The position numbers were made by a program, and so were the translations under genes. A DNA stretch of 63,704 bases, filler included. It is 5 parts of 5 records of this genome, joined end to end, with 100 filler letters (N's around TTAATTAATTAA, not from the genome) between each part and the next. Parts side by side here need not be neighbours in the genome. Positions count along the whole stretch, not along the records: positions 36,951 to 49,528 come from DRR723986_4985; 4 more parts are not named here. The stretch is one strand, 5' to 3'. Positions 3,677 through 58,201 of the stretch are shown in pieces. How positions within the stretch are numbered: position 1 is the first letter of the stretch; every line of letters begins with the position of its first letter. A model generated the notes under the pieces. That model saw nothing but the letters and a program-made list of their open reading frames with translations, ran no database searches and was not told the DNA's origin.

Positions 3677-3687
3677 GGACTGACGAC

Positions 3688-5211
3688 ATGTACCCCATCC
3701 ACTTCTTCGACCGCGCGGCGCGCCTCTGGCCAGAGGCGACGGCGGTCGAATGCGGTTCCGAAAGCCTGACCTACGCCGCGCTTCATGCCCGGGTGCAGGC
3801 GCTTGCCTGCGGCCTGCAGGCGCTGGACCCGGAATTCGGCTCTCGGGTGGGGGTCTGCTGCTACAATACGTTAGAGCATCTGGTCGGCTGGCTGGCGGTG
3901 CTTGCGGCGGGCAAGGTCTGGGTGCCACTGCAGCCGATGAACGCGCAGGACGAGCTTCTCCGCGCGATCAGCTTCACCGGCGCAAGCCTCGTCATCGTCC
4001 AGCCGGAAACGGCGGCCAAGCTGGCGGGCGCGACCGCGCGCTTCGTCATGGCCACGGCCGAACCGGGGGAAGGCACCACCGCCACGCTGGAGCGGGACCA
4101 CGCCGGGCAGACGCCTGCGCCCTGCGCCCTGCCGCTGTCCGCGACGCAGGCGATCAAGTTCACCGGCGGCACCACCGGGCGGCCCAAGGGCGTGATGCAG
4201 CCCTACCGCGCGTGGAACACCAACATCGCCACGCAGATCGCCGCATGGTCGCTTGGTGCAGGCCAGCGCTACCTTGCCGCCGCGCCGATCACCCACGGCA
4301 CCTCGACCTACATCCTGCCGACGCTGGCGACCGGGGGCACGCTTGTGCTGCTCGACCGGCCCCGCCCCGAAGAGACGCTGAAGGCGCTTCAGACGCAGGC
4401 GATCACCACGACCTTCGTGCCGCCGACCGTGCTGTACATGCTGATGGAACTCGAGACGGTGCGCGACAGCACCTACCCGGACCTGCGCAACCTGATCTAT
4501 GGCGCCGGGCCCATGCGCCCCGAGGCCATCGCCCGCGCGCAGGAGATCTTTGGCCCCTGCCTTGCCTCGACCTATGGCCAGACCGAGGCGCCGCAGATCG
4601 CCACCATGATCAGCGCGGCGGAACTGGCCGATCCCGCGAAACGGACCTCCGTCGGGCGCGAGACCCTGCTGAGCCGCGTCGAGATGATGGACCCCGAAGG
4701 CCGCATCCTGCCCCCCGGCGAGACCGGAGAGATCGTCATTCGCGGCGACCTTCTGATGACCGGCTACTGGAACCAGCCCGAGGCCACGGCAGAGGCGCTG
4801 CGCGGAGGCTGGCTGCACACCGGCGATCTGGGGATGAAGGATGCGGATGGCTACGTCTTCATCCGGGGCCGCGCCAAGGAGATGATCATCACCGGCGGCT
4901 TCAACGTCTACCCGGCGGATGTCGAGACGGTGATGGGCGAACACCCCGACGTGGTGGATTGCGCCGTCTACGGCGTCCCGGACGACAAATGGGGCGAGGC
5001 GGTCCATGCGGCCGTGCAACTGCGCGGCGGGGCCACGCCCGACACGGCGGGCATCATCGCCTTCGTCCGCGAAAGGCTTGGCCCGGTGAAGACCCCGAAA
5101 TCGGTTCGCGTGATGGACCACCTGCCGCGCAACGCCATCGGCAAGCTGCAAAAGGCGGAACTTGCCGCCCGACACGAGACCGCCCCCGCGGTCGCCGCCA
5201 AGGAAGGATGA
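3688..5211 (+). CDS. AMP-binding acyl-CoA synthetase/ligase
   Basis: ANL-superfamily motifs 'FTGGTTGRPKG', 'YGQTE', 'GWLHTGDLG', 'PRNAIGK'. Confidence 0.92.
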   Translation: MYPIHFFDRAARLWPEATAVECGSESLTYAALHARVQALACGLQALDPEFGSRVGVCCYNTLEHLVGWLAVLAAGKVWVPLQPMNAQDELLRAISFTGASLVIVQPETAAKLAGATARFVMATAEPGEGTTATLERDHAGQTPAPCALPLSATQAIKFTGGTTGRPKGVMQPYRAWNTNIATQIAAWSLGAGQRYLAAAPITHGTSTYILPTLATGGTLVLLDRPRPEETLKALQTQAITTTFVPPTVLYMLMELETVRDSTYPDLRNLIYGAGPMRPEAIARAQEIFGPCLASTYGQTEAPQIATMISAAELADPAKRTSVGRETLLSRVEMMDPEGRILPPGETGEIVIRGDLLMTGYWNQPEATAEALRGGWLHTGDLGMKDADGYVFIRGRAKEMIITGGFNVYPADVETVMGEHPDVVDCAVYGVPDDKWGEAVHAAVQLRGGATPDTAGIIAFVRERLGPVKTPKSVRVMDHLPRNAIGKLQKAELAARHETAPAVAAKEG

Positions 5212-14702: not shown

Positions 14703-14802
14703 NNNNNNNNNNNNNNNNNNNNNNNNNNNNNNNNNNNNNNNNNNNNTTAATTAATTAANNNNNNNNNNNNNNNNNNNNNNNNNNNNNNNNNNNNNNNNNN
14801 NN
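14703..14802. other. Artificial contig spacer
   Basis: N44-TTAATTAATTAA-N44 (stop codons in all six frames), with an abrupt GC change across it. Confidence 0.98.
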
Positions 14803-36850: not shown

Positions 36851-36950
36851 NNNNNNNNNNNNNNNNNNNNNNNNNNNNNNNNNNNNNNNNNNNNTTAATT
36901 AATTAANNNNNNNNNNNNNNNNNNNNNNNNNNNNNNNNNNNNNNNNNNNN
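36851..36950. other. Artificial contig spacer
   Basis: N44-TTAATTAATTAA-N44. Confidence 0.98.
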
Positions 36951-37286
36951 CAAATCCTCTCATCCGCACTGGTTTTTCTTAGGTCAAACGGCGGTCTTTC
37001 CTCTTCCATTTGACCCACTCGGAAATTCGATCGGTGACAAATCAGTGATCGCGTTGGATTTGCGTTGGCAACATCCCGGCGTTGCAACGTCATTGCATCA
37101 ATGTTGTAGTTTCACGTACTCGCTCGTCTTACTTGGCAGATCGCCGCTGATTTAAGGCAGCCATTAGTCAAGAGTCCTAGTGGGGATTGGGCTGGCAGCC
37201 TTATGGGATTTCGGATGGGCTGTTGCATGTGGCGGGATGGATCACCCACGTCTTGACTGTTTTTTTGTTTCAAGTTGCCGCACAGT

Positions 37287-40200
37287 CTAATGGGCCGGAC
37301 TCGGTTTCTTCAGCGCTTTAAGACCCCAAGTGTAGACGTCGCCCCACTCGCCGGCGCAGATCACTTTGGTCTGATCTTGACTGAAGTCGATGCTGGAAAT
37401 GCGTTCGCCCTGAACATCAAATCCGCCGAGCGAAAAGAGATATTGCCCAGAGTTGATATCCCAGATTTGCGCGACGCCATCAGTGGCGCCGGTGAATATG
37501 CGGTGAGCATCTAAGTCAATCTTGACTGCCGAAAGTTCAGTTTCGCCAAGATCGAATTCCCTAGCGATTGCGCCACTTGTAACGTCCCAGAAATTCGCTT
37601 TTCCGCTTTCGTGAACGACCATGAGATCTTCAAGGTTGTCGCTAGCACTGAGCCAGAAGCGACCGTTCTCTGCCATTTGGAACGCTGCGATTGTTACATC
37701 ATTTGCGAGTGTTCTAATTTCTATTTGACCGGAATTTGTGACGTAGGCCAGAGTTTCTGCGTTGCACCAAATATCTTTTGCTTGTCCTTCCGTTCCCCAT
37801 TCATTGACAACTTCGTGGCTTCCTCTGGTCCAGTGTAGAATCCTATCCTCAACGACCAAAAGTAAATCACCGTTAGGCAGGTGCGAAAAAGAAGTTAGGC
37901 GAAGACCAGTTTCAATCATGAGACGACGCTTCCCAATCAATGGATCTACGAATTCGAGAACACCATCTTCGTATGCAATCGAGATTTCCTCGCCAATCGG
38001 ATTCCATGCAGTCTCAACTACTGACTCGGGCCTCAGGCGAAAGCTAGATACATTCTCCTCGCTAGAGCGGTCCCAAATGATGAGTTTCGGTTGTCCGGCG
38101 GTAAGAACCAAGTTTCCATTTGGACTGAGACTACAAAATCGAATTCCTTCATCGAACTCTTGGTATTGCCAACTTCCACGTACAGAAGTCTGTTCGGTGC
38201 TCCAGGTGATCAGTTTTCCATCTGCGCCGCCGCTCGCGATCTGCGTGCCATCCGGGTTAAAAGCAACGCAGTTCACCGCACTCTGATGCTCACGGAATTG
38301 CGCAATTTCAAATCCCTCCTCGTAGCGCCAAAGGCGAGCCGTACCATCTGAGCTAGCGCTGGCGAAACTATCGCCGTTAGGGCCCAGCTGCAGGTCGTTA
38401 ATAGGTTTGATATGCCCGGTATAGAAGAGACTCTGATAGCCGCTTTCATAATCCCATCCCTTGATCCACCCGTCATCGCCTGCTGACAACGCAATTGGGC
38501 CAGTGTCGTCTAGCTGAAAGCCCGGGAACGCTAGCGACGATATCGAGCGGGTGTGTCCATCAAACCGAGTGATCAGCCCTCGCGGCCTTCCCAGGGTTAG
38601 ATTGCCGAGGGTGTAGAGGTTTCTGAAGAGCGTGTCGGCTTCCTCGAGATGCCAGAAGTCGAGAGCGTTCTGGTCAGTCCCGCTAGCGAGAAAACTTCCG
38701 TCTGCAGTGAAAGCAACGCATCGTATGCTTCCAGACTCTGGTCGAATACTACGAATTTCTTCCTCAGTTTTTCGGTCTACAACTCTGATGACTCCGTCGG
38801 TTCCTCCGAACGCAAGCATTGTGGAGTCCGCGGAGATATCCATTGCGTTTACTTCGCACGAGTGTTTGAGCCTCGACTGTATAGCCCCACTTTCGTAGTC
38901 CCACGACTTGATCGTCCTGTCGGCACTCCCGCTGATGAGCGTTTGTCCGTTCGGCGTCAAAAGTACTTTGTTGATGGCGGCGGAATGCGCCTTCAGTGTA
39001 CGCGTCTCTTGCAAGGTACTCGCATCCCAGTAACGCAGCATTCCATCGCTCCCGCCGGTAACGATTTGTTTGCCATCCTTGCTATATAAGGTGGTGAGAA
39101 CTGAACCGCTGTGTGTTTCGCTTGTAGCGATGCTATCCGCTGAAAAGAGCTTCTTCAGTAGGAAGTACTCCCACTCACGCAAGGCCGGATCGGTTTGCGA
39201 GAGCGAGCGTTTGGCAATGATATGGTTGCCGTAATCCCACTCAGTTTTTGCGCGATTGATTTGACTGGCATATAGTCTCGCCTCGGACAGTTTCCGTGCA
39301 GATGTCTCTTGAGCAGCAAGTGTCTCCGCCCTAGCACGCTGTTCAGACTCCTGTCGCGCAAGTCGCTCCGCTCGGTTCCACTGGATAGTCGTTGATGTGA
39401 GGCCTACAAACAGTGAAGTCAGCAATGCCACGGCTCCAACAACGGCAAGACGATTTTTTCGATAGGCTTTTGAGCAACGGTAGAACCATGATGGCGGACA
39501 TGCGTGAACGGGACGGTCAGTTACGTATCTCTCGATGTCGTCGGCAAATGCACCTGGAGAGTCGTAGCGGCGGTTCCGCTCTTTCTCCAACGCCTTCATG
39601 ACGATCCAGTCTAGTTCTCCCTGCAGCCTCAGTCTGACACGCCGCAGGGCGGAATCACGATCCCTGCCAAACGTCGACGGTTGACCGGAAGTTGTAGTTA
39701 GTCGCTGGCTCGGCTTCTCGGGCTCGACCTCTCGAATAATCCGACGAATCTCATCAACGCCAGCCGCCCGGAGTGTGGCACGGCTGAACGGAGTCGTATC
39801 CGTGAGCAACTCGTAGAGCATGACTCCCAGCGAGTAGACATCACTGCGTGTATCGACACTGAAATTCTCTTGGCCTGCCTGCTCAGGGCTCATGTAGAGC
39901 GGTGTGCCCAAAATCAGCGAATGTGATGTAAATCGTGTTGCCCCAATCGAGTCTTGGTCGATCGCTTTCGCAATGCCAAAGTCAATGATCTTGATTTTTG
40001 GTTTGCCTTCCTTCGAAGCAACCAGGACATTGGATGGCTTCAGATCGCGGTGAATTACACCTTTTTGATGAGCATGCTTTACGCCCTCACAGACTTCGAC
40101 GAACAGTTGCAGCCTGCCATTGATTGGCATGCGTTGAGCTTTGCAGAATTCGGTAAGCGGGACGCCCTCAACGAGTTCCATAACAAAATAGGGCCTGCCA

Positions 40201-40682
40201 CTACCGGTTGCTCCCGCATCCAGGACGCGCGCGATATTAGGATGGTCCATTAATGCGAGTGTTTGACGCTCCGCTTCGAAACGTCGCGTCACTTGTTCCG
40301 TATCCATCCCTGCTTTGATGATCTTCACTGCGACTTGCCGTTTAATCGGCGTAGTTTGCTCTGCTAGGTAAACAGAGCCCATGCCACCTTCACCAAGCTT
40401 CTCTTGCAGCTTGTATGGTCCAATCATCTTTGGCTCATCAAAATCAAGCAGCCCTTTAGGCCTTGAATGCTTGTCCCCACTACCAAGCGGTTTGACCTCA
40501 GCTTCGATTGCCTCATGGGACTGCGTTGCGAGAACTTCCTGAAGCTCTCGCACCGCGTCAGCCAGCTCCTGCGACTCGATAGCAAGCTGTTCCAGATAAC
40601 GCTCTTTCTCGGATTCCGACGAAAGGGCAAAGCACTTAATGAATGCAGTTTTTACAGAATTCTGGAACTCTGACTTGGACAT
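37287..40682 (-). CDS. Ser/Thr protein kinase with TM segment and WD40 repeats
   Basis: 'LGEGGMGSVY', 'VAVK', 'HRDLKPSN', 'DFG', 'GTPLYMSPEQ', followed by multiple GH..WD repeats; a typical planctomycete architecture. Confidence 0.95.
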   Translation of the reverse strand: MSKSEFQNSVKTAFIKCFALSSESEKERYLEQLAIESQELADAVRELQEVLATQSHEAIEAEVKPLGSGDKHSRPKGLLDFDEPKMIGPYKLQEKLGEGGMGSVYLAEQTTPIKRQVAVKIIKAGMDTEQVTRRFEAERQTLALMDHPNIARVLDAGATGSGRPYFVMELVEGVPLTEFCKAQRMPINGRLQLFVEVCEGVKHAHQKGVIHRDLKPSNVLVASKEGKPKIKIIDFGIAKAIDQDSIGATRFTSHSLILGTPLYMSPEQAGQENFSVDTRSDVYSLGVMLYELLTDTTPFSRATLRAAGVDEIRRIIREVEPEKPSQRLTTTSGQPSTFGRDRDSALRRVRLRLQGELDWIVMKALEKERNRRYDSPGAFADDIERYVTDRPVHACPPSWFYRCSKAYRKNRLAVVGAVALLTSLFVGLTSTTIQWNRAERLARQESEQRARAETLAAQETSARKLSEARLYASQINRAKTEWDYGNHIIAKRSLSQTDPALREWEYFLLKKLFSADSIATSETHSGSVLTTLYSKDGKQIVTGGSDGMLRYWDASTLQETRTLKAHSAAINKVLLTPNGQTLISGSADRTIKSWDYESGAIQSRLKHSCEVNAMDISADSTMLAFGGTDGVIRVVDRKTEEEIRSIRPESGSIRCVAFTADGSFLASGTDQNALDFWHLEEADTLFRNLYTLGNLTLGRPRGLITRFDGHTRSISSLAFPGFQLDDTGPIALSAGDDGWIKGWDYESGYQSLFYTGHIKPINDLQLGPNGDSFASASSDGTARLWRYEEGFEIAQFREHQSAVNCVAFNPDGTQIASGGADGKLITWSTEQTSVRGSWQYQEFDEGIRFCSLSPNGNLVLTAGQPKLIIWDRSSEENVSSFRLRPESVVETAWNPIGEEISIAYEDGVLEFVDPLIGKRRLMIETGLRLTSFSHLPNGDLLLVVEDRILHWTRGSHEVVNEWGTEGQAKDIWCNAETLAYVTNSGQIEIRTLANDVTIAAFQMAENGRFWLSASDNLEDLMVVHESGKANFWDVTSGAIAREFDLGETELSAVKIDLDAHRIFTGATDGVAQIWDINSGQYLFSLGGFDVQGERISSIDFSQDQTKVICAGEWGDVYTWGLKALKKPSPAH

Positions 40683-40833
40683 AATTCAACCACGCGCAAA
40701 TTCGGAGATCGGCGACGAATCCTGGGCCAGTAAGCCCTGGCTTGAACAAAGGCTAAGCCCATACTGGATAATGCGAGAGGAGACGCCTCGTTCTCCACCA
40801 TTCCATTTAGAAAATCCCGGATTGGGCTTCTTG

Positions 40834-41415
40834 TTAGGGCTGGGAGGTGCCTAATAGTTGGAGCAATCTCGCTTTGGCGTAGTTCCACTTCGCGTAGGCG
40901 CTGGAGCTGGGAATGTCGCAAGCCTTGGCCGCATCTGACATCGAGAGTCCACAGAAATACCGGAGTTTGATCAATTCAACGGTCTCGGAATCTTCTTTGG
41001 CGATCAGATCGAGAGCTTCGTTCACCTCTAGAACGAGAGACGGATCTTGCGTCGCCGCAGCGAACTGGTCAGCAACGGCTCCATCCAGCTCGAGACGCTT
41101 GCGATCGCCGCCGCGTTGTTTGCCTAGTTTTCGTCGCGCGTGCTCAACCAGAATTCGCCGCATTGCCTCAGCGGCGGCGGAAAAGAAGTGCCCACGCCCA
41201 TCCCAGCCATCGGGACGGTCTTCTCGGACTAAACGAAGGTAGGCTTCGTTTACGAGCGCTGTTCCCTGTAGCGTGTGGTCGGAGCGTTCCTTTCGCATCA
41301 TTGAGCCCGCAAGCTGTTTCAACTCTCGGTATACGAGAGGCAGGAGTTCCTCCGTCGCAGATTCTTGCCCGGACGAAATCTTCTCGAGCAATTCCGTAAC
41401 GTCTTCCAAAACCAA
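40834..41415 (-). CDS. ECF sigma factor, planctomycete kinase-associated type (TIGR02999-like)
   Basis: 'LLPLVYREL', 'HTLQGTALVNEAYLRL', 'HFFSAAAEAMRRILVEHAR', 'LIKLRYF.GL'; adjacent to the kinase. Confidence 0.92.
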   Translation of the reverse strand: MVLEDVTELLEKISSGQESATEELLPLVYRELKQLAGSMMRKERSDHTLQGTALVNEAYLRLVREDRPDGWDGRGHFFSAAAEAMRRILVEHARRKLGKQRGGDRKRLELDGAVADQFAAATQDPSLVLEVNEALDLIAKEDSETVELIKLRYFCGLSMSDAAKACDIPSSSAYAKWNYAKARLLQLLGTSQP

Positions 41416-41874
41416 ACACCTTTCCGATAGATTTGCGAGCTCGCTTACTATAGCTAAGCCGTGTGGGGAACGAAATAAATCGCGGGCAATCTTTCCGAAA
41501 CAGCGTCACCGCGCCCTACCCGTCCAGCCGTGTGTCTTGGCAATGTTCAGGATCCCCCGCATTCGCGAGCATTCTTTATTTGCCAAAACTTCTTCACTGG
41601 ACCTCCGGACTGTTTCGGCTAGCTGAACGAGGTGGGTGTTGTCGTGCTGATTGAGCATGAGCAGAAGCCACTCGCCTAAAGTCGGGCTGCTACATATTGC
41701 GTTTCCAGCTTCCGGTCAATTCGAGAAAGTTTCAGGGATTCTTGGAATTCCTCCTGCTAAGTCTCGCATTGACCTTTGAAGACAAATCCGACACGCATAG
41801 GTAACTCGAACAACATGCAAATTCTATCAGAGCAAAACTGCATTTCAGACCGCCGCGGAGACAACGTTGCAGGA

Positions 41875-42546
41875 ATGCATCTATTCGCACATAGACAAAA
41901 GTCTCGGTCTAAGTTCGGCACAGTTAGAGCAGACAAATCGAGCACCACAATTCGGCTTGCCACTTCAGCTGAAGACTTAGCGATGGTGTATCGCTTTCGA
42001 TACACCATCTACATCGAAGAAATGGAAAGGCTGCAGCATTATGCGAACCATTCTGCAAAGACCATAGTAGACCCGCTGGATAAAAGTGGCTACACGTTGG
42101 CGGCTTGGAGAGGCGGCCAAGTTGTTGCTACCGTCAGAAACAATTACTTCAGCGAGGAAGCTGCTACAGAATACCTGGAGCTTTACGGAATTCCGTGCAG
42201 GGACAATAACTCGCGGACCGTTTTCACGACGCGACTTATGGTTGCACCAAGCTTCCGACGAGGCACGCTGGCAACCAGAGTCTGCATTCAGCTTTATCGC
42301 GAAGCTCTTTCGCGGGGCACGACGACCGCCTATCTGGATTGCAATAGCCATTTGGTTGGGTATTTCGAGGGACTTGGCTACCGCATGCATCTTCGAGAAG
42401 TCGAACATCGTGAGTACGGAGCAGTGGCCGTAATGCGATTAGATCTGCACGACCTTGAATATCTAGAACGCATTCGCTCCCCGTTTCGACGTGCGTGTTC
42501 GGAATTTCTCGGCCTGGAGCTCAGTCGTCGTTGCGACGCCTCGTGA
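41875..42546 (+). CDS. GNAT N-acyltransferase (N-acyl amino acid synthase / LuxI-like fold)
   Basis: 'VYRFRYTIYIEE', 'DPLD', 'VVATVR', 'RLMVAPSFRRG', 'YFEGLGY'. Start codon uncertain. Confidence 0.75.
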   Translation: MHLFAHRQKSRSKFGTVRADKSSTTIRLATSAEDLAMVYRFRYTIYIEEMERLQHYANHSAKTIVDPLDKSGYTLAAWRGGQVVATVRNNYFSEEAATEYLELYGIPCRDNNSRTVFTTRLMVAPSFRRGTLATRVCIQLYREALSRGTTTAYLDCNSHLVGYFEGLGYRMHLREVEHREYGAVAVMRLDLHDLEYLERIRSPFRRACSEFLGLELSRRCDAS

Positions 42547-42589
42547 ATCGATAACCCTTCAAAAATCTCCACATTGGAAAGGTAAGACA

Positions 42590-43354
42590 ATGACAATTTC
42601 CATGCACCTACCAAAGAACGCCATCGCGAGCGATTTACGGGTCGTGCCCGGCGAGATGGGGCCAGAAGACATTGTGGCGCATTTCGATTCGCGAATCAGG
42701 GAAGTCGTGGCCGAATTCTCCGCGAGCGAACTCTGGCGTGTTGTCTCTGATCCAGACACGGATATTTCGCTGGTAAGAGAGATCATGAAAGAGGTCTATC
42801 TTGAAATCTCAATGTACCAACCTGCGGTGATCGAAGCGACGATCGCAATCATCGCCCAGATGCCGCGAACGATGGAGGTCGAGATGTTCGATGAAATGCT
42901 CCATCATCAGGTGGAAGAGTTTGATCATGGCGAAATGGCCTTGCGAGACTTCGTGCAACTTGGGGGCGACGAGCGGTTTGCAAGGTCGAGACGGATGAGT
43001 CCCTCAGCTTTCAACTGTGCCGCCACGTGGCGGATGCTCTGTCACCAACGGGAACCGTTTGCGTACCTGGGCGCTCTCTACCCATTCGAAGGCCTAACGC
43101 CAATTGTTTCCGAGCAAGTGAAGTCCGTACTCTATCAGCGAGGCTTCTCAACGGGGGATTCTGAGTTCATCGAGTACCACTCAACAGCTGACTTAGAGCA
43201 TACACGTATGGTGAAGGAACTTATTTCGAAGGTAGCGGAGCTCTACCCCGAATCGAAGGAGCAGATGTGCTATGGACTCGAGTACTTTCTAGCTGTTTAC
43301 CCGATGCCTGTTTGGAATGCTGCATTCCGCCGAGCAAAGCAGTCCCTGAGGTAA
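42590..43354 (+). CDS. Heme-oxygenase-like diiron oxidase (HDO; iron-containing redox enzyme family)
   Basis: Diiron ligand-like motifs 'QVEEFDH', 'YPFEG', 'EYHSTADLEH' (HxxxDxxH) in an all-helical ~254 aa protein. Confidence 0.78.
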   Translation: MTISMHLPKNAIASDLRVVPGEMGPEDIVAHFDSRIREVVAEFSASELWRVVSDPDTDISLVREIMKEVYLEISMYQPAVIEATIAIIAQMPRTMEVEMFDEMLHHQVEEFDHGEMALRDFVQLGGDERFARSRRMSPSAFNCAATWRMLCHQREPFAYLGALYPFEGLTPIVSEQVKSVLYQRGFSTGDSEFIEYHSTADLEHTRMVKELISKVAELYPESKEQMCYGLEYFLAVYPMPVWNAAFRRAKQSLR

Positions 43355-43359
43355 TCGCT

Positions 43360-43884
43360 GTGTGTCCCAAGATTGGTATCTACTATGCCTCATCCGGCGG
43401 ACGTACGAAACGCGTCGTTGGGTCTCTCGCCGAAATTCTGAGTAAAAGAGCCGATGTAGAGGCTCATGACATTCGCTCTGCTGAATTGAATGGGATCAGC
43501 AATTGGGATCTTCTAATTCTCGGGTCGCCAACTTACGGATCTGGGGAGCTCCATCCGAACTGGACCAACTGGAGTCGAGAGATCGTTTCGATGAACTTGA
43601 AATTGTCGAGGACGCAGACCGCGTTGTTTGCACTGGGCGACCAGAGACATCACCGCAGCACTTTTGGCGATGCGATTTGGAGGCTGGAGGAACTTCGTGA
43701 CACGCTGGGATCACCAGCAGTCGGTGAAATCGAAAATCCTGATGGTAACGGTGAGCGACTACCAGGTTTGGTGCTAGACGCGATCTCACAACGTCGCTCA
43801 ATCCCTTCTCAACTCGAGCTGTGGGCGAAGCAGATATTCGCCGAGCTGGAAACGGGGCGGCAACGCATCAACGCACTTAAATAG
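43360..43884 (+). CDS. Flavodoxin
   Basis: 'IYYASSGGRT', 'LILGSPTYGSGEL', 'ALFALGDQ..FGDA', 'GLVLD'. GTG start 5 nt after the HDO stop. Confidence 0.85.
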   Translation: MCPKIGIYYASSGGRTKRVVGSLAEILSKRADVEAHDIRSAELNGISNWDLLILGSPTYGSGELHPNWTNWSREIVSMNLKLSRTQTALFALGDQRHHRSTFGDAIWRLEELRDTLGSPAVGEIENPDGNGERLPGLVLDAISQRRSIPSQLELWAKQIFAELETGRQRINALK

Positions 43885-43888
43885 TAGC

Positions 43889-44611
43889 TTGACGCACAAG
43901 CGAACTACTCTTCCACAATGCCCTTTGCTAAGGCGATCCTTGAAATTGAACTTGCCATTAAGTGTTAGATGTAACGGGCAGCTAGTTGCTCAACTGAGAG
44001 CTGAACTGGGTTGGACGCAAGAAGAGCTTGCCGCACGATCCGGTTACTCCGATCGGCTAGTCCGAAAAGTTGAGTCGAGCCAATCGGTGTCGAGGTCGAC
44101 AGTGGAGAAGCTCGCGTCCGTCTTCGTTGAGCAAGGCCAGAGTCTCGTGGCTGCTGACCTCTTGGTGGATCCAGCTGACATCGCACGGCAATTCATTGCG
44201 GGGATGTATACCCACAAAGCGAAGGTCATCGACTTCATGCAAGAGATGATCGACGATCAAATCGTTCTGCATTTTGCCGGCGATCCATCCGTGTTTCCGT
44301 TCGCTGGGGAGCATAGAGGGCTCGACGGAGCGCGGCACGCGTTTCGATTGTTTTATTCCGTGATTGAGCCGCCCGAAGACACGTCAGAGATTGACCACTT
44401 TGAGTTCCTATCAACGGGGCTTGGAGCGTTGGTATGGGGAAAGACTTTTGCATCCCCGATTGGAGTTCAGGTAACTACACCAGTCAGCTTGACCATACGC
44501 ATGGACTTTCGTCGAGGCAAGTTAATCCGTTTTGATGATCGCTTCGACACCGCTGCTGCCCAAGAAGCCTTTCTGCAGGCAGGTTTCTTACCAAGTGAGG
44601 GCAATATTTAG
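43889..44611 (+). CDS. XRE HTH fused to an NTF2/SnoaL-like domain (one-component regulator)
   Basis: 'LRAELGWTQEELAARSGYSDRLVRKVES' plus 'PFAGEHRGLDG..MDFRRGKLIRFDDRFDT'. The true start may be slightly downstream. Confidence 0.78.
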   Translation: MTHKRTTLPQCPLLRRSLKLNLPLSVRCNGQLVAQLRAELGWTQEELAARSGYSDRLVRKVESSQSVSRSTVEKLASVFVEQGQSLVAADLLVDPADIARQFIAGMYTHKAKVIDFMQEMIDDQIVLHFAGDPSVFPFAGEHRGLDGARHAFRLFYSVIEPPEDTSEIDHFEFLSTGLGALVWGKTFASPIGVQVTTPVSLTIRMDFRRGKLIRFDDRFDTAAAQEAFLQAGFLPSEGNI

Positions 44612-44810
44612 CGTGCCCCTTGTACGGGAGCCGGTCGTTCCGGTTCCGTTCCTGGACATGACTGTGCCCTACTGCTTACGCTCTCATGTCTCGGGCGCAG
44701 GGACGAACGCTTCGTCTTGTTACCTCAGAATTCACGGTTTCAGTTTCCAATCGAAGCTACACACTGAGCTTTGCTTCTAGATTAGATCGAATCCCCTCTT
44801 GGATCACGAC

Positions 44811-47800
44811 ATGCCTATCTCTTCATTCGCCCGAAAGCCGCGATCCGCCCACTCGAATCGAAAAAGTGTGCAGCGTCAAAAACGTAGGAGACTGCAGGCC
44901 GAGTTGCTCGAGGATCGCCGGTTGCTGGCAGCAGATTTCGAAACTATTCTGCCAATTGGTGAGATTCGAAGCGTCTCCTTCGGCGGACTTGGTGGGCCGC
45001 AATCTTTGGAAGCCGCACATCGCGATCTTGAAGTCAAACGAATCGTCCGCGACAACTTCCAGATCCTTTTTGATTCGGTAAATCGAAATCTGAGCGTTCA
45101 ATCCCCTCCGCTCCGCCGCGCTCTCGATAGCCTCACTCCCGGACGAGATTCATTCAATGAGATTCGCAATTGGAACGGTGGTATCCGCCCCGGGAGTTTC
45201 ACTGGTGTTTTAGATCTGGGAGTACCCGACAACAACAATGCAGTCGTAGCAGTTGTTGGAGCGGATCTCGTCGAGAACTACAACGACTACGATTTCGTCT
45301 CAGTTGTGGGCTACAGCTTAGGAGGGGATACAGCACTGGAACTAGCAGAGCACCTGTTTCACAACGGGCAGCGGGAAATAGATGCGCTAGCAGTCATCGA
45401 TCCAAGTGAAAGCAGCCGAGGGCAGGTTGGTTTTTTCAGAAGGCTCAATCCTGGTGGCGTAGAGTCGAACGTTAAGCATCTCTTCAATCGCTTCCAAACG
45501 AACTATCCATTTCCCCAAGACTATCAAGACCGAGATCGTTGGATTGGCGTCTCGAGTCCGTCCGAAACCATAAGTGACCAGGAACGGTACAACGACCGTC
45601 GCAATGCGGATGGAAGTACGAAAAAGCGAGGCTGCGAACCGAGAGACTACCTAAAGGGGTTCTGCACTATTTTCGGCTCAGGACGGACGAGTCGCATTGA
45701 CCACCAGCAAATTGCAAACGACGACTATTTGGAAACGGAGTACACGGCGATTCTGACAGAAAGGCTAGCACAAGTTTCCAAAACGCCCGACATCGCCGCT
45801 GAGTTCGCCGATTTGCGATCGCGTCAGCCAGACGATGCCAATCAAGTATTTCTGTGGGATGTTGATGGTGAACAAGGGCGTGTTTTGTTGGAGGTAACGA
45901 AGAACGGACGGGTCATTCAGCCGTACACACCACGTGACAGCACTGGGAGTTTCAGTTTCGATAGTTTAGGAGCCGGAGAGTTTCAGTTTAGCCTCGTTGC
46001 GGAGTCCTACAACGCAGCCTTTGCGACATACAAGGTCTCTGTTTTCGATGCTGACCAAGCTCCGCCGATCGTAAGTCTTGCGGGATCAACTGGCGCGATC
46101 CTCGATGCCGAAGCCCGTCAATTTGATTGGTCGATCTTGGATGCCTCAGGGGTAGCGTTTGCTTCAGTTGCAGTGACGGGACCACAAGGACAGTTGTTCT
46201 CCTCAAATCTACAGACGGGCGCGTTCTCGTTGAACTCCTACGGCCCCGGATTCTATCGGATGTCTGCTTACGCAAGTGATGCAGACACCGATTGGAGTGG
46301 AGATCAAAAAACCTCTCGAACGGCGTACCGTTCTGTACAGGTGGTAGATGACGACACGGCTGCGCCGGAATTTTCATTCTTCGACGGACTAGGTCAGCCG
46401 CTAGTCGGAAGTTTTGCGTCAGAGAGCCACGGGCTCGATAACCGGATTGCTTGGAACGTCGTAGATGCATCTGGACTCAGCTCGATGCAAGCTGTGCTGC
46501 GACGAGATGGACAGGTCGTTCGCGAGGAGGCGGTTAGCAGTGCCGGCTCCATGAATCTAGACGCGTTAGGAGCTGGGCGATTCGAACTTACCTTGACGGC
46601 AGTCGATGGCGACTCAGATGGATGGATTGGCGATTCGCTTACGGCTACGGACTCCGTTGTCCTTACAGTGACAAATGAAGCTCCAGAAGTGTTTATAGGT
46701 GGCCCCTATGCAATCGACGAAGGCGGATTGCTCAATTTGCACGCCCAGGGAACAGACGCTGACCCCGGCGATGCGGAAACATTGGCTTACACCTGGGATT
46801 TGGATAGTGATGGCCTATTCGATGACGCTTTTGTGGCAGCACCCGCGATTACATGGGAACAACTTCGCCAGTTTGGGATGGCGGACGACGGTACGTACCC
46901 TATTGCAGTGAGGGTTGAAGATCGGTTAGGCGAGGTAGCACAGGCAGCAGGCTTGATTACCGTGAACAATGCGGCACCTACCATTGTCCGCATTTCTGCG
47001 CCATCGACGGCGCAAGAGGCTGAAGAAGTTGTCTTGACGGGAGAGTTTGCCGATGCGGGACTTGAGGACACCCATACGGTTACGATCGACTGGGGCGACG
47101 GTTCAAGCAGCGATGCGACAGTCGACAGTGTCACCCGGACTTTCTCGGCCAAGCACGTCTATGCAGACGACAAGCCAACTGCAACCCCGGTCGACGACTA
47201 CATCATTCGCGTCACCGTGGTCGACGATGACGGCGACTCGAATTTACAAGAATCACGAGAGGCATTTGCATCGACGTTGTCCTCCGGCGGGGTCGAATTC
47301 GCATCGTTCTTGCAGGCGTTGCCGGAAGGGACAAGTGGTCTCCTCCAGTCAGCTTCAGTCGTGGCTGATCCCCAACCCGTCGATACAACGCTCGTTGCTG
47401 GGGACTCATTCTTTCATCAACACCTTATCGACTATCCTGTGAGCGGCCCTTTTGACCTGCCGGCGACCTGGACGAGTTTCGCAGCAGCGGATGGATTTCA
47501 TACGCATACATTTGATATCCTGTCGCAACGAATAGAATTCAGCGGTGGGAATCTCGGAGACTTTTCGGACAGCCGAACGTTCACGATGGCTTCCAGGGAA
47601 ACAATAGATGGTTCTAGCGGGTTACCAATAGAGCACGAGCATTCAACTGGGGCTGTGAGCTTCACCACGCAAACAGCTTTCACGTATCGACCCAACCAAG
47701 CCAACGCCCGCTATGCAACGGGCAATTTGTTGAGCAATCCGGGTGCACAGAGTGGACTATCCAACTGGTTAATTCGTGCCGGGCAACCTAGGTGGACCAC

Positions 47801-49528
47801 CTATGGCGCTGCTGGTGGCTTTCCAACTCAGTCACAGAGTTGCGGGAGTGCGTGCGGAAGCAGATTCTTCTACGGGGGAACTTCAGCTCGTTCCCAGATG
47901 GCGCAAACCGTTTCTATCCCCAGCAGTCTGCACGCTGCGGTAGACAGAGGTGATGTATTCTTCGAGCTTTCAGCGTATCTCGGAGGATTTGCAACGGATC
48001 GAGACAACGTGGAGGTTCAAGTGATCTCGCGACGTGGATCAGGTAGTGCAATTCGCACACATCCGTCACTTGTTGGACCTGCCCCCTCGACTCGTGGTAA
48101 TCAGACCAAGCTACAGCTTAGGAAGCAGGGATTCGTTGCTGTCCCCGCGAGTACGCGTAGATTTGAAGTTCGAGTTACGTTCAACCGCGTGAATGGTAAT
48201 GACAACGACGGCTACGCGGATAACCTGAGCCTACGGCTGTTCGACCAAAGCCCCAGAACCTACTCCGTCAACAGGACGAACGTCAATGAGTACGTTCTGC
48301 CCGGTTTCAATACAAGTCTCGGTGCATTGGAAAAAGCGGTTGTCACGTTAGACGCTGCAAGCGCTCGGACAGTTTCGGTAGATGGCGGCCGCTTCGAGCA
48401 CGCGCACGATATAGACCTGAATGCTGGGCCGTTTCAGTTTGCTTCAGTCAACTTGACGTCTGCAGAGGCGGTGTCGGACCACGTTCATCAAGCCGACTTT
48501 GCTCCCGTCGAGAAGGTCTTTACGGCACAAGAAGACTTCGCTGCATACTTCTTGAATCCTGGAAGCGTATTAGTAACCCAGGATGATAGCACTTCGACCA
48601 CAGAGCTGTCCCATAGCCATCAAATCGGCGAAAACACAGTTCCAATTCGCAGTGACTTCAACTTTACCTACGACGTGAGCAGTACGCTCATCCGCGTTCA
48701 AAACGCATCGCCGATTATTACGGATCTGCAATTGCCAGAGTCGACCGCGGAGAATTCAGTTGTCAGGCTGACTGGCCAGTTTTCTGACCAAGGGTTCGAT
48801 GATACCCACGAAATCGAAGTGAATTGGGGGGACGGTCAAGTCGAGACCCTGGCGATCCCGTTCGGTAGCACGAGTTTTACAGCGGTTCATCGCTACCGCG
48901 ACGACGATCCGAGCGGTACCGATGGAGACACTTACACGGTCACCGTACGCGTCGAAGATGACGATACGGGGACCGCGCAAACAGTACGCGACATCACGGT
49001 TCTGAACGCAACGCCCGTCCTCAATGCACCGACTAGTTTCAGCATCGGTGAGGGGCAATTGTTTGAGCTTCCTGAAACCAGCTTCTCAGATGCTGGTGTC
49101 TTCGACTCGCACAGCCTGGCGGTCGACTGGGGTGATGGGGAAAGCGAGTTGGCAAGCATCATTTCCAATGCTGGAGCGGGCATCGCGACGGCCAGCCACG
49201 CTTATGCCGACAACGGCAGTTTCAACATTGCGTTGACGCTGAGCGACGACGACGCGGCAACCGACACTGCGATAGTTCCCGTAACGGTGAACAACCTGCC
49301 GCCCGAGATTGAGTCGCTCAGTGGACAACTTTCTGGGGCGGAAGGTGCGAGTTTGGCTTTCACTGCCATTGCAACCGATCCGGGTGCCGACACCCTGACC
49401 TATGAATGGGACTTTGGCGACGGTTCTACTCCCCTTAGCGGATTAGACCTGTCTAGCGTCGAGCACTTGTTTGCTAATGACGGATCATACACAGTTCGGC
49501 TAACGGTGACTGACGACGACGGTGATGC
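44811..49528 (+). CDS. Giant secreted planctomycete protein: LEDRRLLA export motif, alpha/beta-hydrolase-like domain, PKD/Ig repeats, jelly-roll domain (3' truncated)
   Basis: 'RRRLQAELLEDRRLLA', 'VGYSLGG', repeated 'DWGDG..H.Y.DD..V.V.DDD', 'NLLSNPGAQSGLSNW..GYADNLSL'; the frame runs into the spacer. Confidence 0.88.
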
Positions 49529-49628
49529 NNNNNNNNNNNNNNNNNNNNNNNNNNNNNNNNNNNNNNNNNNNNTTAATTAATTAANNNNNNNNNNNNNNNN
49601 NNNNNNNNNNNNNNNNNNNNNNNNNNNN
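49529..49628. other. Artificial contig spacer
   Basis: N44-TTAATTAATTAA-N44. Confidence 0.98.
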
Positions 49629-49837: not shown

Positions 49838-50749
49838 ATGAGTAATCGTCAGGCCACAGTCCAGAGCCAGCCGGAACTCAAGAAGACCGCCGTTGGGGTA
49901 GGGCTGCGATCCGAGCACTATCAGGACGTACTGGAACAGGCACCCGCGCTCGATTTTCTTGAGGTTCATTCGGAGAACTTCTTCGGAGACGCCGGCATCG
50001 CTGTCGATCTGCTACAAGAGATCTCGGCCAGCACGCCGATCAGTCTGCATGGCACCTCGGCAGGTCTAGGGTCTCTTGAGTCTGTTCCTGACGATTACCT
50101 CAAAAAACTGAAACGCCTCGTGGAACGGGTGGATCCGGTGCTCGTGTCGGACCACCTGTGTTTTACCTGGGCGAGGATCGGTGGAAGGCTCTTTCACGGT
50201 GGTGATCTGCTACCCATTCCCTACACCAAAGACAGTTTGCAGCATGCAGTGAACAATATTGACCGCGTGCAACAGTACCTTGGCCGTCAGATCGCTATCG
50301 AGAATGTCTGTGCCTACATCGAGTTTGACCAGAGTGATTTCGACGAGGCGAGTTTTCTCAGTGAAATCGTAGCTCGCACGCAGTGTGGCTTGATCCTCGA
50401 TATCAACAATCTGATGGTGAACGCCCGAAATGGGCAAGTCTCAAATCTGGAGAACTTTGTTGATCGCTACGTCGGATCACTCGACCACTCTGCGATCACC
50501 GAGATTCATCTTGCGGGCTCGACGCCCGTGGGTGAAGAAGAGCTGCTGATCGACGACCACGCCTGCCCGGTATCTGAGGCTGGCTGGCAAACCTACGAAC
50601 GCGCACTCAATGCGATCGGCCCAAAGCCCACCTTGATTGAGTGGGATAACAACCTCCCATCCTGGCGCGAGCTTCTTGGGGAGGCTACCAAGGCCAGAAA
50701 GGCTCAGCGCCGGGTACTGGGGAGGGAGCACAGCCATGAATCTCTCTGA
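49838..50749 (+). CDS. bufB: Multinuclear non-heme iron-dependent oxidase (DUF692/MNIO)
   Basis: 'GVGLRSEH', 'FLEVHSENF', 'SDHL', 'IENV', 'LDINN', 'EIHLAG', 'IDDH', 'TLIEWD'. Confidence 0.93.
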   Translation: MSNRQATVQSQPELKKTAVGVGLRSEHYQDVLEQAPALDFLEVHSENFFGDAGIAVDLLQEISASTPISLHGTSAGLGSLESVPDDYLKKLKRLVERVDPVLVSDHLCFTWARIGGRLFHGGDLLPIPYTKDSLQHAVNNIDRVQQYLGRQIAIENVCAYIEFDQSDFDEASFLSEIVARTQCGLILDINNLMVNARNGQVSNLENFVDRYVGSLDHSAITEIHLAGSTPVGEEELLIDDHACPVSEAGWQTYERALNAIGPKPTLIEWDNNLPSWRELLGEATKARKAQRRVLGREHSHESL

Positions 50750-51485
50750 TTACCAGGCTCATTTCCTCGAATTCCTGTTCGGCGGCACGAGCAATCCGGT
50801 GCGGCCCAATTCAGAGGTGTATCGATTTGGGGTTGAGGCAAAGGCAGTTCGAGCCCTCGAGCAAGGTTATCCAACCGTGAGGGCACTGGTAGGCCCTGCC
50901 GACTTTGAAGGGCTGGCCCTCGATTATTTCAGGATGATCCGCAAACAGAGCGGAGACTGGGGCGATTTCGGCTGGGGCTTCCCGAGCTGGATTATCTCGC
51001 ATCGGATCTCAGACCGCGTTCCTTATCTCTCCGATGTGGCGCGCCTCGACAATTACATCGGGCGAGTCGAGAGAAGCCAATATGAAGAGGTGAACGTCGA
51101 CAGCTTCGCCGTAATTGGAGAAGACCTGGCGTCCTGCTCTCTGATTCTCAACAAAGGACTCCAGTTTTTCCGCTCCATGTACCCGGTGGTCAGTATCTGG
51201 GAGGCGCACAAAAGCGAGACACCGAAGGACACACTCAGTTTTGCTCAGGCGAAGAGAATGATCGCCAGGGGCCGAGGCCAGAATGCGCTGATCTATCGCG
51301 CAGGTTGGAAAGGGATGGCGGAACTCATTCCTGAGAAAGACTTATTGTTGCTGGAGTCAGTCAGAAACCAGCGGAGTATTGCCGAAGTCTTTGGCGAGGA
51401 TGTTCTGAAAGACACCAGCTTTACCCATTGGCTGCAAGACATGATCGCAAAAGGCGTCATTGTTGGCGCCAAAGCCATTCATTAA
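50736..51485 (+). CDS. bufC: DUF2063-family MNIO partner protein
   Basis: 'VYR..ALEQGYPTVRALVG..F', 'PYLSDVARLD', 'SMYPVVSIWEAH'; overlaps the MNIO stop. Confidence 0.85.
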   Translation: MNLSDYQAHFLEFLFGGTSNPVRPNSEVYRFGVEAKAVRALEQGYPTVRALVGPADFEGLALDYFRMIRKQSGDWGDFGWGFPSWIISHRISDRVPYLSDVARLDNYIGRVERSQYEEVNVDSFAVIGEDLASCSLILNKGLQFFRSMYPVVSIWEAHKSETPKDTLSFAQAKRMIARGRGQNALIYRAGWKGMAELIPEKDLLLLESVRNQRSIAEVFGEDVLKDTSFTHWLQDMIAKGVIVGAKAIH

Positions 51486-51497
51486 GAGGAGATTGAC

Positions 51498-51953
51498 ATG
51501 AAAACGTTGGCATACAGTTTCTATGGTTTGAACGATTCGGTTCAGCGACTGATTGGCAGCCTGCTACCCATTGCACTGCTTCTCGGGCGGCTTTATGTGG
51601 CCTGGGTCTTTTTTAAAGCTGGTCTCACAAAGATTGATGACTGGGGAACCACGCTGTTTCTGTTTGAGGAAGAATACAGTGTTCCGCTGTTGAGCCCCGA
51701 GTTTGCGGCCTTCCTGGCGACCTTTGGTGAACTGGTTTTTCCGGTGTTGCTGGTCATTGGCCTGTTTTCCCTGGTGTCTTCGCTGGGTCTGTTCGTCATC
51801 AACATTGTTGCGGTAATCAGTCTTGAAGCGATCGCGCCAGCAGCGGAACTGTATCACGTGGTCTGGGGCTTGATCCTGATGGCTCTGGCTATGTGTGGTC
51901 CGGGTGTGTTCTCCCTGGATAAGCTGATTGGCGACCGGTTGAGAAAAGCCTGA
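51498..51953 (+). CDS. bufD: DoxX-family membrane protein
   Basis: 'RLYVAWVFFKAGLTK..W..T..LF..EY', 'ELVFPVLLVIGL', 'GPGVFSLD'. Confidence 0.88.
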   Translation: MKTLAYSFYGLNDSVQRLIGSLLPIALLLGRLYVAWVFFKAGLTKIDDWGTTLFLFEEEYSVPLLSPEFAAFLATFGELVFPVLLVIGLFSLVSSLGLFVINIVAVISLEAIAPAAELYHVVWGLILMALAMCGPGVFSLDKLIGDRLRKA

Positions 51954-58101: not shown

Positions 58102-58201
58102 NNNNNNNNNNNNNNNNNNNNNNNNNNNNNNNNNNNNNNNNNNNNTTAATTAATTAANNNNNNNNNNNNNNNNNNNNNNNNNNNNNNNNNNNNNNNNNNN
58201 N
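58102..58201. other. Artificial contig spacer
   Basis: N44-TTAATTAATTAA-N44. Confidence 0.98.

Follow-up and report, generated by a model that had tools for sequence, protein, structure and literature searches.

Heme-oxygenase-like diiron oxidases (HDOs) are a superfamily in which, according to the available part of a 2026 review, only about a dozen enzymes have a validated function, and deorphanization is named there as the key need of the field (PMC13108848). The same part of the review gives a set of three histidines and three carboxylates (3-His/3-carboxylate) as the majority ligand set. In the available part of another paper, also from 2026, MboA is reported as an HDO that acts on an N-acylated C-terminal residue with a dedicated reductase, MboB (PMC13185094). 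Among the pathways built on N-acyl amino acid synthases of the FeeM/NasY type, dehydrotyrosine formation has been assigned, in the text available, to NasY, a ThiF-like protein, and a TyzC-like nitroreductase (PMC12479983, by comparative genomics and knock-out; PMC12856293). Here we analyze a three-gene cassette in which a putative N-acyl amino acid synthase of the GCN5-related N-acetyltransferase (GNAT) type stands next to an HDO and a flavodoxin. It was found in a stretch of DNA of 63,704 nucleotides, filler included (the window, meaning this whole stretch), that joins separate contigs through paired N runs at 14703-14802, 36851-36950, 49529-49628, and 58102-58201, and genes outside 36951-49528, the 12.6-kb contig that carries the cassette (DRR723986_4985), are therefore no context for it. 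All three genes lie on the + strand, with gaps of 43 nt between GNAT and HDO and 5 nt between HDO and flavodoxin:

41875-42546, + strand: GNAT with the FeeM/LuxI fold, putative N-acyl amino acid synthase, 223 aa, ATG start, Pfam FeeM
42590-43354, + strand: heme-oxygenase-like diiron oxidase/oxygenase (HDO), 254 aa, ATG start, Pfam Haem_oxygenas_2 (PF14518)
43360-43884, + strand: divergent long-chain-type flavodoxin, putative electron donor of the HDO, 174 aa, GTG start, Pfam Flavodoxin_1

Shine-Dalgarno-like motifs precede the HDO ATG (GGAAAGG) and the flavodoxin start (GAGG), and P0121, a database protein at 84% identity, has an N-terminus consistent with the GTG start of the flavodoxin. We found that conservation extends to the GNAT-HDO pair but not to the whole trio, and that this pair is spread over at least five phyla and is sometimes fused. 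The set examined comprised 4 genome loci, 60 metagenome loci, and the window (65 in total, 54 after dereplication at 95% HDO identity), all scored with hidden Markov models built from the window proteins. A GNAT gene lies directly beside the HDO gene, on the same strand, in 39 of the 54 dereplicated loci, upstream in 29 of them and downstream in 10, with gaps of 30-318 nt. Most of the 15 loci without an adjacent GNAT (11) lie on contigs that break off no more than 900 bp from the HDO; L065 is rearranged, with no GNAT directly beside the HDO, and L001 encodes a 531-aa FeeM-domain protein two genes downstream of it. Neither L050 nor L056 has a GNAT, and on the HDO tree the two make up a separate basal sister clade. 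At L050, approximately 145 residues of the open reading frame at 3618-4772 precede the HDO match and are without a Pfam match, and at L056, globin and methyltransferase genes are found just upstream of the HDO.

The pair also occurs as a single protein. All 11 HDO homologues found in the range of 446-2000 aa are FeeM-HDO fusions of 454-497 aa, five inspected fusion sequences suggest at least three lineages, and L021/L022 encode a 491-aa GNAT-HDO fusion. P0140 and P0145 are natural examples of such fusions. In L011, whose HDO is 66% identical to that of the window, a PP-binding domain (E 2e-14) is fused ahead of the GNAT in a frame that is stop-free from the contig start, and a weak adenylation-subdomain match lies further upstream (E 5e-4, below the cutoff). 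A distant version of the pair, with an HDO only 31% identical, is present on a plasmid of Rhizobium sp. CB3171 (NZ_CP121657.1, 54366-58206; L073), where the GNAT, annotated as 'hypothetical', was recognized only by profile-profile comparison (probability 97.7%). The two genes adjoin in either order, have fused repeatedly, and occur together even in this very distant version, which argues that GNAT and HDO are functionally coupled. A side observation is the co-directional array at L041:2254-10668, an expanded version of the GNAT-HDO module in which a MacB-type exporter is joined by three HDO paralogues, three or four genes of the GNAT/FeeM type, and a methyltransferase of the PEMT/ICMT type.

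A word-indexed search gave 395 HDO homologues, with 48-92% identity among the 120 matches listed, and a profile search of 1.84 billion representatives gave 388, 148, and 66 proteins at E <= 1e-3, 1e-10, and 1e-30, respectively; the HDO family is compact. Named sources of the pair or of the HDO belong to Planctomycetota, Chloroflexota, Gemmatimonadota, Verrucomicrobiota, and Pseudomonadota and include, for HDO homologues, Aquibium microcysteis and Bradyrhizobium sp. UFLA05-112. A preliminary description of the cassette, made from the letters of the window alone, had listed three co-oriented genes with the gaps given above, and their open reading frames, starts, and stops are as it stated. The arrangement is more than chance, which the same-strand GNAT in 39 of the 54 loci and the existence of GNAT-HDO fusions bear out. 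Its view of the trio as a unit holds for the GNAT and HDO across at least five phyla and fails for the flavodoxin, which is confined to one HDO clade and 8 of the 54 loci. The neighborhood analysis of HDO homologues that it called for gave the same split result, with the GNAT co-occurring widely and the flavodoxin restricted to a clade in which it is found at all seven observable loci.

The HDO scores 56.7 bits against Pfam Haem_oxygenas_2 (cutoff 28.9) and carries the ligand motifs E109-E110-x-x-H113, E167, and H197-x3-D201-x2-H204 (EExxH / E / HxxxDxxH). In an alignment of 29 homologues, E110, H113, H197, D201, and H204 are invariant, and position 167 is E in 26 and D in 3. Outside the ligand set, R132, R248, Y76, Y159, W49, and W147 are likewise invariant in the family. 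The AlphaFold2 model (predicted local distance difference test [pLDDT] 95.4, predicted template-modeling score [pTM] 0.90) has as its closest structure 3dde, an uncharacterized structural-genomics protein with the same ligand motifs (Foldseek TM 0.77/0.84; VIA-align Z 24.9, root-mean-square deviation 2.2 over 222 residues). Further fold matches, by VIA-align Z, are CtCADD (20.7), HrmI (20.7), FlcD (18.1), and RohS (17.4), followed by BesC (17.1) and UndA (16.8), with metal-free TenA proteins interleaved among the structural matches. By sequence, the nearest solved proteins are a self-sacrificing p-aminobenzoate (pABA) synthase (E 5.8e-6) and 3dde (E 1.4e-4), and the ligand motifs of the HDO align with those of both. 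The window protein thus has the heme-oxygenase-like fold and the 3-His/3-carboxylate set of the HDO superfamily, as the preliminary description had proposed, and the complete ligand set rules out a TenA-like identity. By its sequence, it is a ligand-complete member of an uncharacterized HDO subfamily with putative O2 activation; P0002, a protein 74% identical to it, falls in ESM Atlas clusters that are named only 'iron-containing redox enzyme family'.

We also considered a self-sacrificing pABA synthase of the CADD type, which was rejected on the NCBIfam TIGR04305 score of 31 bits against a cutoff of 200. The column of the lysine that is presumably the amine donor in CADD aligns to Q174 of the HDO, and at position 176, close by, K, R, M, and Q all occur in the family. 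As a separate observation, P0257 (545 aa) combines a SARP-type BTAD activator domain with an HDO-like domain (residues 307-532) that is only distantly related, at 84 bits against the HDO family profile, and may be a regulator with an HDO-fold sensor.

The GNAT scores 32.3-33.4 bits against Pfam FeeM (cutoff 27), and among 33 members of its family, 31 match FeeM and 28 match Acetyltransf_5. Its model (pLDDT 88.8) gives as best Foldseek matches the coenzyme A (CoA)-dependent N-acyl homoserine lactone (AHL) synthases MesI (6wns, E 2.6e-9) and BjaI (5w8a), and next FeeM (2g0b, E 6.7e-8), TofI, LasI, and RpaI. A single-sequence search of the PDB returned spurious or partial GNAT matches only, and the family profile matched MesI at E 8e-5 over profile positions 12-170 of 187. 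Residues R42, Y46, R52, A57, D69, R88, and D155-C156-N157 are invariant in the family, and D58 and H59 nearly so, giving the motifs RYxxY...ADH...D...R and DCN. The first ~23 residues are unconserved and poorly modeled, so the true start may be further downstream. The protein has both the Pfam score and the FeeM/LuxI-type fold of a FeeM-type N-acyl amino acid synthase. The three family assignments made earlier (FeeM/LuxI-type GNAT, HDO, flavodoxin) are therefore upheld by Pfam scores above the cutoffs and, for the GNAT and HDO, by matching folds.

The flavodoxin scores 40.7 bits against Pfam Flavodoxin_1 (cutoff 25) and stays below the NCBIfam equivalog cutoffs for FldA (88.5 against 175) and flav_long TIGR01752 (82.4 against 146.75). 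It keeps the flavin mononucleotide (FMN) phosphate loop S/T-x-x-G-x-T, the PTYG motif, and a long-chain-type C-terminal segment, and approximately 10 residues of the long-chain loop are gone. In all nine cassette-linked flavodoxins that were aligned, among them those of the window, L001, L011, L013, L029, and L066, and also in the database homologue P0127, the tyrosine of the GDQxxY motif, which we take to be the residue that stacks on the flavin, is replaced by histidine. Only three homologues are better than approximately E 1e-11, with identities of 84%, 39%, and 41%, and two of the three are from contigs equal in length to those recorded for the two closest HDO homologues. The eight loci with a flavodoxin are the window, L001, L011, L012, L013, L029, L054, and L066. 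In a maximum-likelihood tree of 48 HDO rows, which left out 11 near-duplicates and HDOs covering fewer than 200 profile positions (including L066), the seven flavodoxin loci with a near-full-length HDO all fall in one clade of nine (support 99/97). The remaining two rows of this clade, L017 and L039, come from short contigs that do not reach the flavodoxin position, and the flavodoxin is thus present at all seven loci of the clade with a visible flank. Three gene orders occur: GNAT-HDO-flavodoxin, HDO-GNAT-flavodoxin, and HDO-flavodoxin followed by a long FeeM-domain protein. Among these cassettes, the flavodoxins are 30-40% identical and the HDOs approximately 57%. The flavodoxin is therefore a clade-specific addition that has been kept over a long divergence and not a general requirement of the pair.

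We think it probable that the cassette flavodoxin is the reductant of the HDO, and several results have to be set against this proposal. A flavodoxin was not seen at 46 of the 54 loci, and three genomes with the pair and no adjacent flavodoxin (G002-G004, incomplete metagenome-assembled genomes) gave no match to the cassette flavodoxin type at E <= 1e-5; from these two results it follows that the HDO does not generally need a flavodoxin. The FMN properties of the cassette flavodoxins are uncertain because of the histidine in place of the GDQxxY tyrosine. A scan of 11 longer homologues and of 7 long representatives gave no HDO-flavodoxin fusion, and flavodoxin adjacency within one monophyletic clade could partly reflect shared ancestry. 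Prediction of an HDO-flavodoxin complex, with two Fe and FMN and with the supplied alignments unused, gave ipSAE values of 0.03 and 0.01 against a mark of 0.34, which speaks neither for binding nor against it.

These results bear on a rival in which the flavodoxin carries electrons for general purposes, for example as a ferredoxin substitute under low iron, and stands beside the pair by common descent. Its restriction to 8 of the 54 loci, all in or near one clade, would fit such a carrier, as would the lack of a fusion among the long homologues scanned. In genome G001 (an incomplete metagenome-assembled genome), the cassette copy is the only flavodoxin of its type and could therefore have housekeeping duties. 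However, the flavodoxin stays in the cassette through at least three gene orders despite the divergence of both flavodoxin and HDO, only 5 nt separate it from the HDO stop in the window, and the cassette flavodoxins are a distinct subgroup with the histidine substitution. We regard a general-purpose carrier as possible but doubtful and retain the flavodoxin as the probable reductant of the HDO in this clade.

Taking the module as a whole, we propose that the product of the cassette is probably an N-acyl amino acid or amine that has been tailored by oxidation. The GNAT would acylate an amino acid or amine, the donor most likely being a fatty acyl group bound to a carrier protein or CoA. The HDO would then use O2 to oxidize the same small molecule, most likely the N-acyl product with its free carboxylate and hydrophobic tail. 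In the clade of the window, the recruited divergent flavodoxin would supply external electrons that return the diferric center to the diferrous state after each turnover. The product would probably be released or used as a signal, and its expression or sensing probably involves the adjacent extracytoplasmic function (ECF) sigma factor and Ser/Thr kinase. The proposed acyl donor is suggested, at the level of sequence, by the PP-binding fusion in L011 and by desaturase genes in L020 and L036. Reaction order, acyl donor, acceptor, type of oxidation, electron transfer from the flavodoxin, and signaling role are all points that we infer, and the minimal acylation-plus-oxidation pathway put forward in the preliminary description fits the data.

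For each turnover, an HDO that catalyzes a two-electron substrate oxidation or a monooxygenation requires two electrons from outside. A need for external electrons fits a two-electron oxidation or monooxygenation, and a four-electron oxidation less well. It does not discriminate among decarboxylation to an enamide, desaturation, hydroxylation, and N-oxygenation, and we hold each single chemistry among oxidative decarboxylation, desaturation, hydroxylation, and N-oxygenation to be unlikely when taken alone.

Several observations weigh against our proposal for the module. Homology transfers no reaction type to the HDO, because its nearest characterized relative is found only at E 5.8e-6. No exporter, carrier-protein, or acyl-activating gene is present on the window contig 36951-49528, the neighboring genes (kinase, LuxR-type regulators, exporters) vary from locus to locus, and a comparison of six kinase- or sigma-linked loci for a shared promoter motif gave one 8-mer common to three regions and nothing convincing. 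Among 301 sampled Planctomycetota genomes, the HDO family is present in one (E <= 1e-40), which is the search-centre genome itself; together with identities of 50-70% across phyla, this points to a sporadic accessory trait that was probably transferred horizontally.

Adjacency and fusion do not favor one order of the two reactions over the other, and an alternative has the HDO modify a free amino acid first (by N-oxygenation, desaturation, or C-C cleavage, as HrmI, PolF, and BesC do). The GNAT would then acylate the result, either finishing the product, for example a hydroxamate-like N-acyl-N-hydroxy compound, or detoxifying a new amine or hydroxylamine. Characterized HDOs mostly act on free fatty acids or amino acids, according to the available part of PMC13108848, and HrmI is among the best structural matches of the window HDO (Z 20.7). 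Nevertheless, the GNAT falls in the fold group of long-chain N-acyl amino acid synthases and AHL synthases and not with resistance acetyltransferases, a carrier-protein domain is fused to the GNAT in L011, and MboA shows, in the available part of PMC13185094, that HDOs can act on N-acylated (peptidyl) amino acids. We consider the reversed order with such a role for the GNAT unlikely and prefer acylation before oxidation. A further candidate, the stieleriacine or N-acyl dehydrotyrosine pathway that the preliminary description had linked to the cassette, was dropped: dehydrotyrosine formation is assigned in the available text of PMC12479983 to NasY, a ThiF-like protein, and a nitroreductase, and the two tailoring genes are not on contig 36951-49528, which encodes only a kinase, an ECF sigma factor, the GNAT, the HDO, the flavodoxin, a helix-turn-helix (HTH) protein, and a PKD-domain protein. 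The genes on this contig that flank the cassette are as follows:

37287-40682, - strand: Ser/Thr protein kinase with WD40 beta-propellers (Pfam Pkinase E 1.1e-46, and WD40), downstream of the ECF sigma gene
40834-41415, - strand: ECF sigma factor of the PF07638 type (Pfam Sigma70_ECF E 1.4e-52), divergent from the cassette
43889-44611, + strand: XRE-type HTH protein (Pfam HTH_3, 35.5 bits), 4 nt past the flavodoxin stop
from 44799, running off the contig end (49528): PKD-domain protein of more than 1576 aa, directly downstream of the cassette region

A divergent intergenic region of 459 nt separates the ECF sigma gene from the GNAT gene. The sigma factor is a candidate regulator of the cassette, and the kinase a candidate sensor or regulator. 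The HTH protein has a weak SnoaL-like C-terminal part (SnoaL_2 14.6 bits, below its cutoff), and its gene had no counterpart at the other loci in a tblastn search at E <= 1e-4; we treat it as context only. L001 also has a PKD-domain protein close by, and a link to the PKD protein of the window is probably coincidence.

Neighbors were counted in 28 Pfam-annotated loci with long flanks, one per 95% cluster. A Ser/Thr kinase directly adjoins the cassette in six of them (the window, L015, L024, L025, L040, and L055), accompanied by a sigma factor in the window, L024, and L025; in L024, a PF07638 sigma factor and kinase are divergent from the pair, as in the window, and in L025, the sigma factor and kinase lie upstream of it. 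GerE/LuxR regulators occur in five (L020, L021, L047, L057, and, by tblastn, L058). Those of L047, L057 (three tandem copies), and L058 are of ~370 aa and lie upstream of the pair, and the two GerE regulators flanking the Rhizobium pair of L073 are full-length homologues of them (L073a against the L047 regulator, E 7e-24 over 367 aa). L021 encodes a response regulator with a LuxR domain and a histidine kinase. Exporter genes (MacB, FtsX, ABC, HlyD, or OEP) are found in another subset of six (L001, L004, L021, L041, L050, and L055), and in L020 and L036, the pair is followed by fatty-acid desaturase genes and extra HDO paralogues. Regulators and exporters suggest a released molecule, possibly a signal.

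A special case of our proposal is that the pair is a cell-cell signal synthase, with a GNAT like LuxI or FeeM, an HDO that tailors the signal, and receptors or regulators encoded alongside, namely PAS-like LuxR proteins or, at loci that include the window, an ECF sigma factor and kinase. This special case draws on the AHL synthases as top structural matches of the GNAT and the MesI profile match (E 8e-5), on the homologous ~370-aa GerE regulators beside the pair in L047, L057, L058, and the distant plasmid pair, on the response regulator and histidine kinase of L021, and on the kinase, with or without a sigma factor, in 6 of 28 loci. Against it, none of the 33 GNATs matches Pfam Autoind_synth at E <= 0.01, the regulators have no recognized autoinducer-binding domain and their PAS matches are weak, and regulators very commonly adjoin biosynthetic genes; there is also no LuxR-type gene in the window and no shared promoter motif. 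We therefore regard a signal synthase as a tentative reading that is rather less probable than not. Its broadest version would make the pair, free or fused, the synthase of an unrecognized class of oxidized N-acyl amino-acid/enamide signals used in Planctomycetota, Verrucomicrobiota, Gemmatimonadota, Chloroflexota, and some rhizobia. The readout would be by PAS-like LuxR-family receptors or by ECF sigma/Ser-Thr kinase pairs, depending on the lineage, and in a planctomycete-centered clade an HDO would, for the first time, have a dedicated physiological reductant of the flavodoxin type, namely the His variant. All these points together would be a long shot.

A membrane role has also been considered, in which an OlsB-like acyltransferase and an HDO that hydroxylates or desaturates the lipid would form a membrane aminolipid, with no secreted metabolite. 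Among the 33 GNATs, 28 match Acetyltransf_5, which we take to be the OlsB-type family, and there is a weak NCBIfam OlsB match; desaturases are present in L020 and L036 and a PEMT/ICMT-type methyltransferase in L041. However, the score of the GNAT against the OlsB equivalog is 19 bits for a cutoff of 350, and the 28 annotated loci showed no O-acyltransferase of the OlsA type. An accessory product for secretion agrees better than a core membrane lipid with the MacB/HlyD/OEP exporters and with a distribution as sporadic as 1 of 301 genomes. An aminolipid is thus quite improbable, and an N-acyl product that is released after oxidation continues to be the reading that we favor.

Other parts of the window belong to separate contigs. 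The first contig (1-14702) has a G+C content of 65-72%, against ~45-56% in the remainder (14803-63704), and because of this difference, the bin may mix organisms. A search of sequencing runs for the window listed no RNA run, and two DNA runs contained small shares of the stretch (0.27 and 0.07). On a different contig, at 49838-51953, successive genes encode an MbnB/TglH/ChrH-family (DUF692) protein (E 1.7e-86), a DUF2063 protein, and a DoxX protein; we take the DUF692-DUF2063 pairing to be typical of MbnBC-like systems that modify ribosomally synthesized and post-translationally modified peptides.

In the full-text literature, with subscription-only papers and supplements outside the scope of the search, we found no description of a GNAT and HDO combination, with or without a flavodoxin, in line with the earlier statement that no cluster of this composition had been described. 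The available part of the 2026 HDO review has no mention of GNATs, flavodoxin, ferredoxin, or reductants, and the sole 'acyl' in it is in the title of a reference (PMC13108848); the words GNAT, acyltransferase, and acetyltransferase are not in the text of the mangotoxin paper. The earlier remark that the reductants of HDOs are mostly unknown has to be qualified by the MboA/MboB precedent, although MboB is not a flavodoxin (PMC13185094, available part).

The findings matter for the superfamily as a whole. An obligate and sometimes fused N-acyl amino acid synthase is an unusually clear genomic clue to the substrate of an HDO, and N-acyl amino acids are a substrate class not among the characterized HDO substrates in the available part of PMC13108848. 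The clade-specific flavodoxin is a defined candidate reductant, and the sole dedicated partner described so far, MboB, is of another type (PMC13185094, available part). The recurrent LuxR-type and ECF/kinase neighbors make a signaling role testable in phyla with poorly known chemical communication, and as the module is small, with two or three genes, heterologous expression with liquid chromatography-mass spectrometry is straightforward.

In comparison with known systems, the GNAT belongs to the same Pfam family, FeeM, as FeeM and NasY of the environmental-DNA fee cluster and of the stieleriacine, thalassotalic acid, and tyrazolone pathways. It shares the FeeM fold (2g0b, TM 0.61-0.65 by query length and 0.73-0.76 by target length) and, judging by the L011 PP-binding fusion, likely also a carrier-protein- or CoA-bound acyl donor. 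It differs in its identity to FeeM of only ~10-11% and in its own invariant motifs, and its partner here is an HDO, whereas the dehydrotyrosine/oxazolone pathways use a ThiF-like cyclase and a nitroreductase (PMC12479983 and PMC12856293, available text). LuxI-type AHL synthases (MesI, BjaI) have the closest fold to the GNAT, and LuxR-family regulators adjoin the pair in some loci. Identity to them is, however, 16-21%, the GNAT family has no Autoind_synth match, and the neighboring regulators have no recognized autoinducer-binding domain.

With the characterized HDOs, the window HDO has in common the helical heme-oxygenase-like fold and the 3-His/3-carboxylate set, although it is orthologous to none of them and its closest structure is the uncharacterized 3dde. 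The genomic partner of its subfamily is an obligate GNAT, which the available part of PMC13108848 does not mention. By analogy with MboA, it probably acts on an N-acylated amino acid with a candidate dedicated redox partner, which here is a flavodoxin, whereas MboB is a flavin/Fe2S2 reductase (PMC13185094, available part). The window flavodoxin shares with long-chain flavodoxins such as FldA the Flavodoxin_1 domain, the FMN phosphate loop, the PTYG loop, and the C-terminal segment, and differs from them in scoring below all FldA and flav_long cutoffs, in the histidine for the GDQxxY tyrosine, and in its shortened loop. Relative to these systems, the novelty has two sides: the cassette pairs an N-acyl amino acid synthase with a tailoring enzyme of a new type, and the HDO represents a new subfamily whose obligate partner is a GNAT, joined in one clade by a flavodoxin.

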